Notes under the pieces: model-generated
What the model was told of the DNA's origin: nothing
The model's database searches: none
Seen by the model: the letters and a program-made list of their open reading frames with translations, nothing else
Source of the DNA: Thermoplasmatota archaeon
GTDB taxonomy: Archaea > Thermoplasmatota > E2 > JACPAO01 > JAHFTW01
Direction: 5' to 3'
Assembly (NCBI GenBank): GCA_035292455.1
Contig: DATDQC010000208.1
Location: forward strand, 1-27,583
Length of the DNA: 27,583 nucleotides
Made by a program: the position numbers and the translations under genes
Part shown: positions 1,909 through 6,816 of the stretch, piece by piece
How positions within the stretch are numbered: position 1 is the first letter of the stretch
Layout of the letters: each line of letters starts with the position of its first letter

Positions 1909-3048
1909 TCAGGCGGTGCTGGGGTTGACCGCAGGAACCCGGGCAAGGCCCCGTGCCACCAGCACGGCCGACGCCGCGGCGAGGGTGGCGAGGATCCCGA
2001 GGGCCACCGCAGGGTGGGCGACGAGCCGGCCCGCGATCGGCCCGGCGGCGAAGGTCCCGAGGTAGCCCACCACGTTCTGGATGCCGTGGCCCCGCCCGCC
2101 CGAGCGGCCCGCCAGGCGGCTCACCTGGCTGGGGAGGACCGCGGAGAGGACGCCGTGGGTGGCGAAGAAGAGGATGCCGCCGAGCCAGAGCCAGGGCGGG
2201 GTGCCGTCCACGAAGAGGCCGGCGGCCCCCGCCAGCACCACCATCCCGGCGATGACCGGCTGCCACGTCGCGCGGCTGCGGTCGATGCCTTGGCTGGCGA
2301 CGGCGAGGAGGACGAGGGAGGCAAGAATGAGCAGCACGAAAGTCCCGCTGCCCACATCCGGGAGGAAGAAGACCACCGTGGTGAGGGCGTAGTTGACGGT
2401 AAAGCCGCAGGCGGCGAGGCTCAGCACCGGAAGGCCGAGGCTCCGGCGGTCCCCGGGCGGGGCGGAAATGTTCGTTGGGGACTTGCCATGGAACGCCAGG
2501 ATGGGGATCCCCGCCGCGAGCCCCATGGCGGCGGTGACCCAGAACAGGCCGGGGATGCCCCCGACGTGCGGGGCAAGGAGCGGGTTGGCGATGAAGCCGA
2601 GGAGGAAGCCGAGTCCGGCGGGGATGCCGATGAGGGCCATCGCGACGGTGCGGCGCTCCTCGGGGATGCGCTCCCCGACGGCGGCCATGGCGACACTGGC
2701 GACGGTCCCCATCCCCTGCAGCAGCCGGGCAGCGATGAGGGTCCCGATGCTGTCGGCGAGGGCGGCCCACACCGAGCCCGCGACGAAGAGGACGGTCCCC
2801 AAGATGAGGACCGGGCGCCGTCCGATGCGGTCGGAGAGGATGCCGAGCGGCAGCTGCATCAGGGCGAACGTCAGGCCGTAGGCGGAGAGGGCGGTCCCCA
2901 CCAGGACCGCGTTGCCGGTGAGGGTCTCGCCGTAGGCGCGGAAGCCGGGGAGGACGAGGCTGAGCCCAAAGACGCGCGAGAAGACCAGGAACGCCGCGGC
3001 GGCGACGATTCCGAGTTCGGGGCGGGTGAAGCCGGGCCTCCTCGGCAC
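1909..3048 (-). CDS. MFS transporter
   Basis: About 12 hydrophobic segments, MFS motif A (GILSDRIGRRPV), ARLLQGMG. GTG at 3048 preferred over the ORF-track start 3144 because AAAACCCTGAAG (3083-3072) lies 23 nt upstream. Confidence 0.9.
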   Translation of the reverse strand: MPRRPGFTRPELGIVAAAAFLVFSRVFGLSLVLPGFRAYGETLTGNAVLVGTALSAYGLTFALMQLPLGILSDRIGRRPVLILGTVLFVAGSVWAALADSIGTLIAARLLQGMGTVASVAMAAVGERIPEERRTVAMALIGIPAGLGFLLGFIANPLLAPHVGGIPGLFWVTAAMGLAAGIPILAFHGKSPTNISAPPGDRRSLGLPVLSLAACGFTVNYALTTVVFFLPDVGSGTFVLLILASLVLLAVASQGIDRSRATWQPVIAGMVVLAGAAGLFVDGTPPWLWLGGILFFATHGVLSAVLPSQVSRLAGRSGGRGHGIQNVVGYLGTFAAGPIAGRLVAHPAVALGILATLAAASAVLVARGLARVPAVNPSTA

Positions 3049-3175
3049 GGCCTGGGCTTCGCGTGCCCGCACTTCAGGGTTTTGGCGGCGGGACCTTCGT
3101 CCCGGCTTCGCCGGGCCGAAGGATTCCTCGCGGCCTTCGGCCATTTGGTCTCCCGCATTGAGTAGAGTCCGTCGG

Positions 3176-3277
3176 GGGAGATACCGGATTCGGAACCGGA
3201 GCGCAGCAGCGCTCCGGTTTAGCGAGCGAAGCGAGCGGAGAATCCGGCATCGACCGCGAGGAGCGGAGCGACGAAGC
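3176..3277 (-). repeat. tRNA-Lys 3'-end-derived structured element: direct repeat, inverted copy and hairpins
   Basis: 3176-3199 gggagataccggattcggaaccgg repeats 3278-3300 (tRNA T-arm/acceptor) with one extra g. 3240-3251 gaatccggcatc is an 11/12 inverted copy. Perfect 11-bp hairpin at 3194-3219; gcgagcgaagcgagc motif at about 3222-3236. Confidence 0.85.
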
Positions 3278-3352
3278 GGGAGATACCGGATTCGAACCGG
3301 TGAATGGCGGATTAAGAGTCCGCTGCCTTGGACCTGTCTCGGCTAATCTCCC
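3277..3352 (-). tRNA. tRNA-Lys(CTT)
   Basis: GGGAGAT/ATCTCCC acceptor stem, anticodon arm GCGGA-CTCTTAA-TCCGC, T-arm ACCGG-TTCGAAT-CCGGT, discriminator G; no encoded CCA, no intron. Confidence 0.96.
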
Positions 3353-3381
3353 AGGGGGCAAATCCGCGCGACTCGGAGGCC

Positions 3382-3392
3382 GTTGATAAGGG
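3382..3392 (-). promoter_or_regulatory. Putative TATA-like promoter for tRNA-Lys
   Basis: CCCTTATCAAC on the minus strand, 29 nt upstream of the tRNA 5' end. Confidence 0.5.
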
Positions 3393-3606
3393 CAACGGTG
3401 CGTCCAATCGATGGTGTCTTGGGCACCCGAGCATCAAGCAACCCGTTTCCCTGGAATGAATCAAGTTCCTGGTCATCCGACCACCCTTCGCGCGCGGCCG
3501 TTCTTGCCAACATCTGGCTAAGATGTCTGGCGCCGCTCGGACCAAGACAAGGATTAGAACCGCAATTCCAATCCATTTCCAGGCGCTATCTTCCATATAT
3601 TTTCTC

Positions 3607-4428
3607 TCAGTCGTCCTCGTCGCCGGCCTTGGCCTTGCCCTCGGCCGGCCCTTCGGCGTCCTTCCCGCCGTCGGCTCCGCCGTCGCCGCCCTCGGCCCGG
3701 CGGGCGGCGTCCGCCGCCTCGTCCGCGGCCTTCTTCTCGGCGTCGCTGGCGCTGGTGCCGAACTCCTCCCGGAGTTTGGCCATGGTCTCCTCGTCGGTGA
3801 ACTTGCTGAGGAACTTGGCGTCCACCGACTCGGTGACGTAGACCGACTTGCCGGCGCGGAAGATGAAGTTCCCCGCCCCGGTGGCGGCCTTGACGTCCAC
3901 CTCGAGGAGGATGGGGTCGCTGATGTGGACCCGGCCGGCGGAGTACGCCTTGTCGGGGCTCGCCGAGAGGTGGATCATGTTGCGGTCCGAGGGCCTGAGG
4001 CCGTTCTCCAGGACGAGGTCAAGCTCCTCCTCCACGACGGGGAAGTAGAGCTTGTCCACGTTGGCCTCCGGGAGGTCATCCAGGTTGACGGGGATGGAGT
4101 GCGCGTAGGTGGCGCGGATCATCCCGCCGTCGATCTGGTAGCGCCCCTTCTCGTCGGTCTCCACGAGGGCCTCGATGTGCTCGCGGTGGAGCCAGCGCGC
4201 CATGTTGGGGCGGGAGTTGCGGATGGCCTCCACGAAGGCGTCGAGGTCCACCCAGCCGCGGCCGTCCATGGTGAGGTTGAACCTCTCCGGGAAGTGGCGG
4301 AGGATGCCGGCCATCATGCGGCCGACGCGGTCGATCTCGTGGTCCTTCATCACGAAGCGGCCGCGCTCGTCGCACAGGGGGCAGAGTTCGCCGCGGTAGA
4401 ATCCATGGGTCCTGCATTGGGCAAGCAT
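3607..4428 (-). CDS. kptA: RNA 2'-phosphotransferase KptA/Tpt1
   Basis: N-terminal CRTHG...CPLC knuckle, GILRHFP, MDGRGWV, RYQ...IRATYAHS, IHLS motifs; acidic Ala/Gly-rich C-terminal tail. Confidence 0.93.
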   Translation of the reverse strand: MLAQCRTHGFYRGELCPLCDERGRFVMKDHEIDRVGRMMAGILRHFPERFNLTMDGRGWVDLDAFVEAIRNSRPNMARWLHREHIEALVETDEKGRYQIDGGMIRATYAHSIPVNLDDLPEANVDKLYFPVVEEELDLVLENGLRPSDRNMIHLSASPDKAYSAGRVHISDPILLEVDVKAATGAGNFIFRAGKSVYVTESVDAKFLSKFTDEETMAKLREEFGTSASDAEKKAADEAADAARRAEGGDGGADGGKDAEGPAEGKAKAGDEDD

Positions 4429-4432
4429 GGTA

Positions 4433-4503
4433 AGGGGAGAGAGGGAATCGAACCCCCGTGACAGGCTCTGCAGGCCCGTGCATAGCCACTTTGCTATCTC
4501 CCC
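4433..4503 (-). tRNA. tRNA-Cys(GCA)
   Basis: GGGGAGA/TCTCCCC acceptor stem, anticodon arm CGGGC-CTGCAGA-GCCTG, T-arm GGGGG-TTCGATT-CCCTC, discriminator U typical of Cys. Confidence 0.95.
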
Positions 4504-5503: not shown

Positions 5504-6816
5504 GCCGATCGCCTCCGCAGCATGGCGACGGCAGCCAAGGCGCCGAGCACCAGGACCGGCGCCAGGCCGGGCGAGCCCTTGCCGCCCTCCTTGGTCGTCT
5601 CCACGACCTCGCCCGACTCGTCCACGCCGAAGGCGCGCTTGCCCTCGACGGTGAAGAGGCCGTCGCCGGTGGCGGTCGCGGTGTGGGCCAGGTTGGGGAC
5701 CGCGATGCGGATGGTGTAGTCGCCGTTGGGGGCGTCCTCGTCGCGGAACTCCCAGAGGTAGGTGACCTCGGCCGCCTTGTCGTGGAGGCCGTGCACGTGG
5801 GCGTTCTGGGTCACGACCTGCCGCAGCTCCTGCGGCTGCGCCGGGCCCTCGATGCTCACGGTGATGTTGGCGACGTCCACGTCGTAGGTGCCCCACGGGG
5901 AGTTCACCGCGGTGTGGATGAGGAGGGTGCCGGCCGCCACCTGGGGGTGGATGTACTCGATGTAGACCGGGTTCAGGATGGCCAGGTCGAGGCGGGGAAG
6001 GTGGTCCTGGTCGAGGGCGAGGCGCATGTAGCCCTCCGCCGGCTCCTCCTCGCCGAAGGCGCCCTGCGGGTTCTGGAACCAGTCGAGGCGGATGTTGTAG
6101 GCGTCCGCCTTCGGGATGGTGGTTTCGGAGAGGTCCATCGGGATGGCGAACTCCACGATGCCGGCCTCGTCGGGGACGAGGATGGGGACGCCGTCGGGCC
6201 CTTCCTGGCTGGGGATGGCGCCGTTGAGCCCGAGCGTCTGGGTGTCGAGGACGTGGGCGGTGAGCGAGCCCTGCATGATCAGCTTCCCGGCGTCGAGGTT
6301 GCTGTCGGGGCCTACCTCGTTCCCGGTCCGCATGGTGGCGCGCATCGTGAAGGCGGGGAGGGCGTTGGGGAGGCCGGTCCAGCCCACGGCCTGCAGCTCC
6401 GAGAGGCTCTCCGTGCTGAAGAAGTCCCGCACCTCGACGTAGAGGTGGACGACGGGGGTGACGCCGTCGTCGATTTTGACCTCCTGGGCGATGCCGCGTT
6501 CGGGGTGGAACCGGGGCCGCCCGTTCTCGATGAAGTCGTACTCCACGGGGCCCGAGGTGGCGAACCCGTAGATGGTGTTGAAGTCGAAGGTCCCGAGCGG
6601 GGTCGCGGGCAGGGTCGGGAAACTCGTGCCGCCGACCTCGAAGAACGCGACGTCCATCGGCTGCGTGTTGATGGGGAAGGCGTTGAAGGTGTCGAAGATG
6701 TGGAAGTAGAGCGTCGTGGGCGTCGACCGTTCAGGATTCTGAAGCTCGGCCGACGAGGATGGCACCCAGGCAAGCAGGAGGGCCAGCATGGTGGCCCCAA
6801 GCACTCGCACCCGCAT
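5500..6816 (-). CDS. Secreted surface protein with PGF-CTERM-like C-terminal sorting signal
   Basis: Signal peptide MRVRVLGATMLALLLAWVPSSSA; C-terminus KGSPGLAPVLVLGALAAVAMLRRRSA (PG-hydrophobic, TM, basic tail). ATG 6816 is 24 nt after AAGGTTGAAG (6850-6841). Confidence 0.8.
   Translation of the reverse strand: MRVRVLGATMLALLLAWVPSSSAELQNPERSTPTTLYFHIFDTFNAFPINTQPMDVAFFEVGGTSFPTLPATPLGTFDFNTIYGFATSGPVEYDFIENGRPRFHPERGIAQEVKIDDGVTPVVHLYVEVRDFFSTESLSELQAVGWTGLPNALPAFTMRATMRTGNEVGPDSNLDAGKLIMQGSLTAHVLDTQTLGLNGAIPSQEGPDGVPILVPDEAGIVEFAIPMDLSETTIPKADAYNIRLDWFQNPQGAFGEEEPAEGYMRLALDQDHLPRLDLAILNPVYIEYIHPQVAAGTLLIHTAVNSPWGTYDVDVANITVSIEGPAQPQELRQVVTQNAHVHGLHDKAAEVTYLWEFRDEDAPNGDYTIRIAVPNLAHTATATGDGLFTVEGKRAFGVDESGEVVETTKEGGKGSPGLAPVLVLGALAAVAMLRRRSA

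Follow-up and report, generated by a model that had tools for sequence, protein, structure and literature searches.

What has been added to the 3' end of a tRNA-Lys gene in a GC-rich archaeon is the question raised by this locus. The window, that is, the whole stretch of 27,583 nucleotides analysed here, is contig C208 of a 1.31-Mb MAG (69% G+C; labelled G000 below) of an uncultured soil or groundwater archaeon of the Thermoplasmatota, an origin to which soil runs and an archaeal RNase P RNA point, and in this contig the tRNA-Lys gene is followed by about 100 bp in which the end of that same gene recurs, once inverted and once directly. The original prediction took this stretch for a non-autonomous, tRNA-targeting mini-element or a tRNA-mimic trailer rather than a simple relic of deletion. 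The parts of the locus are listed here with the evidence for each; T denotes the copied segment of the gene, T' its inverted copy, and T2 its direct copy.

3276-3352, minus strand: tRNA-Lys(CTT) gene, with no encoded CCA (ARAGORN; Rfam RF00005, 62.7 bits)
3278-3300, minus strand: T, the copied segment, consisting of the tRNA T-arm and acceptor 3' strand (direct and inverted repeats; 16-mer statistics)
3258-3275, minus strand: x, a spacer starting at the base after tRNA-Lys (sequence; fold)
3240-3257, minus strand: T', an inverted copy of the last 18 nt of tRNA-Lys (inverted repeats; 16-mer statistics; fold)
3220-3239, minus strand: block A, a conserved single-stranded TCCG-CTCGCTTCGCTCG-CTA with the R motif (motif counts; recurrence)
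3194-3219, minus strand: hairpin B, a perfect 11 bp with the core GAGCGC-TGCT-GCGCTC (inverted repeat; motif counts; compensated stem changes)
3176-3199, minus strand: T2, a direct copy of the last 23 nt of tRNA-Lys (direct repeats; 16-mer statistics)
1909-3144, minus strand: MFS transporter gene, starting 31 nt past T2 (NCBIfam MFS matches)

The direct repeat that had been reported 102 bp downstream of the tRNA-Lys end is present: T and T2 share 17 nt exactly (3176-3192 and 3278-3294) and, with one extra C in the copy of the T-loop, 23 of 24 nt (3176-3199 and 3278-3300). T2 ends where the acceptor ends, and has C in place of the discriminator G. The inverted copy, initially recognised at 3240-3251 as an 11-of-12 match, in which there is one G-T, extends to 3257, over which 15 of 18 nt (83%) are complementary to the tRNA end. 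Spacer x forms the loop of the T:T' hairpin and bears a degenerate copy, CGCTCCGCTCCTCG, of the 13-nt R motif, whose exact form, CTCGCTTCGCTCG, lies at 3223-3235 within block A. The arms of hairpin B occupy 3194-3204 and 3209-3219, the 3' arm continuing into T2, and the entire interval between T and T2, only about 80 bp, holds no ORF. With up to three mismatches allowed, the 16-mer GAATCCGGTATCTCCC has three matches in the window, exactly the sites of T, T', and T2; shuffled sequences gave a mean of 0.29 matches, and none of 100 reached three. The repeats and hairpin of this trailer are unexplained by chance.

Folded in isolation, the trailer (3172-3275, minus strand) is predicted to reach -48.4 kcal/mol, a value equalled by none of 200 shuffles (z = -5.0). 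The predicted fold is the one drawn originally, a 12-bp T':T2 stem that closes off hairpin B and an internal loop containing GCTCGCTTCGCTCGC; the supposed imperfect hairpin GCTCGC-TTC-GCTCGC is actually a direct repeat. When the 3' part of the tRNA is added to the fold, T' pairs with the tRNA T-arm and acceptor strand instead of with T2, an alternative that had also been foreseen. Pairing between T' and T2, both in the window and in the E. coli units described below, covers just the 5' part of T2 and leaves its 3' tail unpaired, so the helix is not a full mimic of an acceptor stem. Folds of the module on the two strands differ little (sense -65.3 versus antisense -66.8 kcal/mol, with 42 versus 36 G-U pairs), and this lack of strand asymmetry gives no support for selection at the RNA level.

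The trailer is one member of a recurrent family. Reading of all tRNA trailers in G000 revealed modules behind five further genes, tRNA-Ser(GGA), Ser(CGA), Arg(CCG), Arg(TCG), and Ala(CGC); by strict criteria a module with T2 is present at five of the 37 tRNAs, tRNA-Arg(TCG) being additional to this count. The order of parts is T, x, T', TCCG-R-CT, hairpin B (tip GAGCGC-TGCT-GCGCTC), and T2, with a further hairpin, CAGGGGGC...GCCCCCTG-GACCCCC, sometimes following the module. The distance from the tRNA gene is 21-31 nt for T' and 76-100 nt for T2, and the regions upstream of the same tRNAs, used as controls, contain nothing comparable. A seventh copy adjoins the RNase P RNA gene at its 3' end and duplicates that end in both orientations; the core of this copy is 88% identical to that of the tRNA-Lys module, so the proposed restriction to tRNAs does not hold. 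Every module in G000 copies the 3' end of its own gene, directly and inverted; the view that this is no simple deletion relic, and the suggestion that other tRNAs would prove to carry duplications of their own ends, were both borne out here and in relatives. What the locus contains is a cassette without genes, some 100 bp long and joined to a stable-RNA gene at its 3' end; elsewhere the cassette recurs with the end of whichever gene it adjoins.

The interior of the module is shared where the arms are not. Block A recurs on contigs C51 and C7 of G000 and in G004, a genome of another genus, and near-identical cores of A plus B are joined to different arms at tRNA-Lys, tRNA-Ser, and the RNase P RNA gene in G000 and at tRNA-Arg in G004; that exact core is present in two of 197 genomes of the class. 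The R motif occurs 10 times in G000 against 0.26 expected, and the core of hairpin B four times against 0.006. At other loci the loop of the x hairpin is often CTCGCTKCGCTCG, that is, motif R, or its complement, and R is found in both orientations at equivalent positions in the module. When eight modules were aligned, both bases had changed with pairing kept at 12 of the 18 consensus pairs; the closing stem and the hairpin thus remain paired through two-sided changes, the covariation that had been proposed as a check, and T' tracks T where genomes differ in it. At none of the loci examined is T2 followed by CCA, and no T/T'/T2 module was seen at the SRP RNA and 5S rRNA loci examined.

Two other kinds of hairpin were observed in G000. 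One is a family of about 90 bp with a conserved stem, CGGACAAACGGG...CCCGTTTGTCCG, a loop often containing the R motif, and GCAGGGGGCTCCGCCCCCTGC-ACCCCC 12-20 nt after the stem; it adjoins six or seven tRNA genes (contigs C23, C41, C75, C211, C250, C267, and C62) and also lies behind the stop codons of protein genes (contigs C25, C47, and C269). The other comprises R-loop hairpins directly behind protein genes (C123:53, C183:2806, and C254:196), in which the 5' arm consists of the stop codon with the last codons and the 3' arm is an inverted copy of these, with no direct copy. From their sequences, these look like the T-x-T' half of the module placed on coding genes.

Modules are common in some relatives and absent from others. 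By the strict criteria, T2 modules follow 12 of 44 tRNAs in G004 (94% complete), several of them in tandem, and eight of 18 sampled tRNAs in G026, a member of a sister family, and none of 15 in G025, from a third family. T' is detectable in 16 of 25 strict modules, and about a third are without one; in G004, for example, the Phe, Gln, and Leu-CAA modules have direct repeats of 26-28 nt with little or no T'. The distance of T2 behind the gene clusters at 46-120 nt, its length varies from 9 to about 33 nt, and its terminus falls exactly at the gene end in dozens of loci. Some 35 distant Thermoplasmata with a conserved Tpt1-tRNA-Lys neighbourhood have no module at tRNA-Lys.

Turnover is evident even among close relatives. 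Within the family, the tRNA-Lys locus may carry other units, two units, or none, and the empty site that had been sought exists (L087), with the MFS gene beginning 37 nt behind the tRNA. The RNase P RNA locus was compared in 22 genomes of the family: 10 have a module and 10 are empty, presence differs within one genus, and homology is plain to see between the modules of three genera. Units often stand in tandem arrays of two or three, which can be of mixed type; two module types, for example, follow a single tRNA-Ala, both with arms for that tRNA. The arrays are polarised (L034, L051, L019, and L035), the gene-proximal unit having the best-matched arms and the distal copies of T being decayed. 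G010 has an extra gene-proximal unit that is absent from its relative G020, and the interior of a module has been swapped between G018 and G023. Contigs from four independent soil runs, compared with positions 2700-3700, come from related strains with other trailers behind tRNA-Lys; within their fragmentary cover of this region, neither an empty-site bridge nor an excision joint was seen.

The neighbourhood of the tRNA-Lys gene deserves a remark of its own. The tRNA-Cys gene of the window ends at 4433 and a gene for Tpt1/KptA, an RNA 2'-phosphotransferase, starts at 4428, 4 nt behind it (window 3607-4503), which suggests that the 5' end of the Tpt1 mRNA is made by tRNA processing. The order tRNA-Cys, Tpt1, tRNA-Lys is kept in close relatives, and the pairing of Tpt1 with tRNA-Lys extends across many Thermoplasmata. 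In G004, hairpins of a "short-arm" module type, GGACCGGCCGGCCG...CGGCCGGGCGG, follow the SRP RNA gene (C4, approximately 5700-5810; L184) and occur behind tRNA-Gly, Glu, and Pro as well; nothing like them follows the SRP RNA gene in four other genomes.

A counterpart to this layout is known in E. coli, the tRNA-linked repeats (TLRs): ten loci with tRNA or rRNA genes have between one and five TLRs each, 22 in total, and the last 18-19 nt of every TLR are the same as the 3' terminus of the RNA encoded upstream (PMC8144298). The same source traces them to Egan & Landy 1978 and Rudd 1999, making them known since 1978, and names as members the 178-bp tyrT/tyrV repeats with RttR (the RtT RNA, Rfam RF00391), the lys and arg repeats, and rrA, rrB, and rrF behind 5S rRNA (PMC8144298). 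Their function is not known, except that three units behind 5S rRNA give rise to sRNAs that bind Hfq and CsrA, and the authors propose that the terminal repeat is a signal for 3' processing (PMC8144298). We read the tyrV, lys, and arg units and found in each an inverted copy matched to its own tRNA (Tyr, GGGGAAGGAT; Lys, GTGAAGGAT; Arg, CCAGGGAGGAT) and a common core, AACGTTGC..GCAACG-GCCCGAAGGGC-GAGCGAAGCGAG, directly before T2. In the Rfam consensus structure of RtT the inverted copy pairs with T2, forming the same closing helix as in the window, and the notion of a tRNA-mimic trailer fits this family, the closest that we found. The E. coli unit behind 5S rRNA has T2 and no T'.

Resemblance extends to short stretches of sequence. 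The archaeal R motif is present, without change, within the E. coli TLR core, and motifs of 13-14 nt shared by the two sets include CGAGCGAAGCGAG and GCCCGAAGGGCGAG. In all, 13-14-mers common to E. coli units (1.1 kb) and archaeal interiors (1.5 kb) occur 14 times, versus 0.005 in shuffles, a figure whose real significance is lower because the E. coli units are paralogous and the motif is of low complexity. The RF00391 model gave no match in the window at E<=1 and none over the cut-off in five archaeal genomes (best 19.4 bits, cut-off 45). A search of phage and plasmid collections with the E. coli TLR core matched only chromosomal records filed there. The TLRs behind lysQ and lysV of E. coli K-12 (NC_000913, 781653-781800 and 2521329-2521470; L224 and L221) were also seen to carry a 15-nt inverted copy, GATTCGAACCTGCAG, of the 5' side of the T-arm, not of the 3' strand, together with a variant of R, GAGCGCAGCGA. 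Judged by its layout and closing helix, the tRNA-Lys trailer would be a module of TLR/RtT type. That archaeal and E. coli modules form a single family across the domains seems doubtful to us; it would imply a widespread machinery or function that writes backward and forward copies of the 3' end of a stable RNA into its trailer (a self-addressing, gene-less insertion cassette) or reads them (a universal processing signal).

Genuine mobile elements do occur at the tRNA-Lys locus of relatives. In G023 (C4:105195-117696; L069) a 12.5-kb island occupies the tRNA-Lys gene, flanked by a 17-nt repeat of T and carrying a tyrosine integrase (PF00589, 1e-23) adjoining the tRNA and a serine recombinase. 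The island sits in front of a complete TLR-like module, which it does not replace, and has no T' at its ends; it therefore does not make the module the mere deletion remnant that such an island had been expected to imply. In G018 (C4:85082-108040; L067 and L068) a 23-kb insert separates T from x, within a few bases of the end of tRNA-Lys; its own terminal inverted repeats, CAGAYAWTCGGC, are accompanied by a repeated subterminal GGGTTAGAA, a short target duplication of 5-6 bp (GCTCAA), and a weak match to a DDE transposase, and it was therefore assigned to the DDE-type transposons, as unrelated to the module, and rejected as an autonomous form of it. The same insert encodes a 2078-aa PKD-domain protein. 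In G000, tRNA-Met(CAT) is closely followed by a gene for a tyrosine recombinase (C58:255-1430), which probably belongs to a conventional integrated element.

Several known kinds of sequence were considered as origins of the module and set aside. Copying from mature tRNA is ruled out by the absence of CCA after T2; a degenerate second tRNA gene or minihelix, by the complementarity of T', which takes in the discriminator and part of the T-loop as well; and a C/D or H/ACA guide RNA, by the absence of the corresponding boxes. Y1 (HUH, IS200-type) transposases (PF01797) were found in none of five genomes and TnpB (PF07282) in none of 25, which speaks against an IS200/IS605-type PATE or a REP (RAYT) element. 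Reverse transcriptase (PF00078) was found in only one of 25 genomes, which, with the lack of CCA, argues against a retroelement-derived repeat. Nor is the module an integron cassette or attC site, since the repeated core differs from locus to locus, being the end of the gene itself, and no integron integrase is adjacent. Tyrosine recombinases are present in every genome checked. The only intact one in G004 lies near the tRNA-Arg module; it is divergent and distinct from XerA, G000 lacks a counterpart of it, and apart from this case no recombinase adjoins the arrays.

The explanation that we favour, and of which we are about half persuaded, is that the tRNA-Lys trailer is one unit of TLR/RtT type, co-transcribed and processed with its gene and maintained by recombination and conversion. 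The unit would be transcribed together with the tRNA; once the tRNA had folded, T' would pair with T2, rebuilding a helix that resembles T-stem and acceptor up to the copied 3' terminus. Enzymes that trim tRNA 3' ends might then cut a second time, behind T2, releasing a hairpin RNA of about 100 nt and leaving the MFS-ctaA-cyoE genes with a junction like that at an empty site. This RNA-level part (read-through, T':T2 pairing, and the second cut) we consider somewhat less than evenly probable. In the DNA, units could be gained and lost through recombination between copies of T (unequal exchange or precise deletion), and gene conversion or template switching within the palindromes could keep T' and T2 matched to the gene. 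The rapid turnover, with interiors swapped and presence varying within a genus, suggests a process that is mutational or selfish rather than a function under conservation. We count against the model the third or so of modules without detectable T' and the failure of the RF00391 model to match, and it leaves out how a new locus first acquires arms from its own gene while sharing its core with other loci.

Active insertion would address the same observations differently, and although we think it unlikely, it is the strongest of the rivals. Here a gene-less mini-cassette would be inserted at the 3' ends of stable-RNA genes by a recombinase acting in trans; the folded T':T hairpin, as a cruciform or single-stranded mimic of the target duplex (compare attC and CTX attP), would act as the attachment site of the cassette, and exchange of a single strand inside T would yield T-x-T'-y-T with the gene end rebuilt. 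The observed order, T-x-T'-y-T2, is the exact product of such an exchange. Mixed arrays with the best-matched arms next to the gene and decayed distal copies of T agree with repeated insertion at the gene, as do the extra gene-proximal unit of G010 relative to G020 and the two module types behind one tRNA-Ala. The joining of near-identical A+B cores to different arms, with that core in so few genomes of the class, the lineage-specific expansion (12/44 versus 8/18 versus 0/15), the absence of strand bias, with R in both orientations, and the tyrosine recombinases in each genome checked also point this way. The mobility supposed in the original prediction has nonetheless found no enzyme: none is linked to the module, the sole intact tyrosine recombinase of G004 is not matched in G000, and the searches for Y1 transposases, TnpB, and reverse transcriptase were negative (the last but for one genome in 25). 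Neither an excised nor an empty form was seen in the four soil data sets, whose cover is fragmentary, and no movement is known of E. coli TLRs, whose core was not found on phages or plasmids in the collections searched. Moreover, a donor must already bear the arms of its target, which leaves spread to new genes unexplained.

Less probable again is that the modules are functionless errors of replication, in which template switching at small, GC-rich, REP-like hairpins behind highly transcribed RNA genes copies the gene end backwards and then forwards (a micro "inverted triplication") and conversion homogenises the result. Template switching is described in three reports as able to create a perfect stem in a single step and, at short palindromes, to give direct-inverted-direct arrangements (PMC8794818, PMC4689423, PMC10766183), and the searches above found no dedicated enzyme. 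The stems are almost purely Watson-Crick and symmetric between strands; the same R-loop hairpins are seen after protein genes, where the stop codon forms part of the stem and T2 is lacking; and the spread in T2 length is as expected of conversion tracts. In the A+B modules, however, T2 directly follows B, whereas simple outward extension of B would copy block A too, and T2 ends precisely at the gene end in dozens of loci. A grammar and a 13-nt motif common to two archaeal families and E. coli are also unlikely to be independent accidents. A last reading, that the copies are attL and attR of a deleted integrase-bearing island, is very improbable: integrated elements in archaea are usually marked by directly repeated 3' ends of tRNAs (PMC9897764), an island does use the same 17 nt of T in G023, and the G004 Phe, Gln, and Leu-CAA modules resemble such remnants in their long repeats, but the G023 island is separate from the complete module that it precedes and lacks T' at its own ends, no integrase lies between T and T2, and neither the tight unit size with T2 46-120 nt behind the gene nor the motifs, inverted copies, use of RNase P RNA, and E. 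coli parallel would be expected of random deletions. These last two readings explain less than do co-transcribed TLR-type units or active insertion.

In the literature searched, we found no description of such modules in archaea. The kind itself is already known from the TLRs of E. coli; new, as far as that literature goes, are its abundance in an order of Thermoplasmatota, its use of RNase P RNA, its rapid turnover, and the motifs in common with E. coli. Among the tRNA genes examined in three genomes, up to a quarter to nearly half carry modules, as does the RNase P RNA gene of many relatives. With tandem arrays, gains, losses, and interiors swapped between close relatives, this archaeal lineage offers a much richer natural experiment on TLRs, in which the acquisition of arms, the role of the inverted copy as an address, a processing helix, or a by-product of replication, and the 13-nt motif as a site for a protein or enzyme become testable by comparison. 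The modules also yield partial copies of tRNAs and look-alike att sites, which may mislead tRNA annotation and the prediction of genomic islands.

Four known systems bear comparison with the modules. REP/BIME and MITE-type repeats likewise form short GC-rich hairpin mosaics behind genes and undergo lineage-specific expansion; the stems of the modules, in contrast, are copied from the flanking gene rather than conserved, and the RAYT/Y1 transposase was not found in the five genomes searched. Integron attC and CTX phage attP are sites folded from a single strand as a hairpin, with the order core, insert, inverse core, hairpin, core, the integron core being a fixed sequence of the GTTRRRY type. 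The modules share this order of parts, the polarised arrays, and a site that can be folded from a single strand, but their "core" is the end of the target gene itself, with no integron integrase adjacent and no cassette ORF. Elements integrated in tRNA genes, which have gene-less derivatives with att repeats (cis-mobilizable elements), also regenerate the gene by leaving its 3' end directly repeated, and they too accumulate in tandem; in G023, T itself serves a true integrase island. The module differs from these in being only 100 bp long and gene-less, with an inverted copy of the target, and in having one core that serves different targets; no matching integrase was found.

The E. coli TLRs are the closest of the four. 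Archaeal modules, too, lie directly behind a stable-RNA gene in the same orientation and end in a copy of the last nucleotides of the RNA upstream; in both, a locus has a single unit or several, each about 80-180 nt long, the closing helix is made by the terminal repeat and an inverted copy inside the unit, and the core is common across tRNAs while the arms are specific to each tRNA. The differences begin with the host, an archaeon and not an enterobacterium. The archaeal modules do not match the Rfam RF00391 model, their T2 has no CCA because these tRNA genes do not encode it, and T2 varies in length from 9 to 28 nt, compared with 18-19 nt in E. coli. They use RNase P RNA, with none seen at 5S rRNA, and they occupy a far larger share of the tRNAs and turn over rapidly between relatives.
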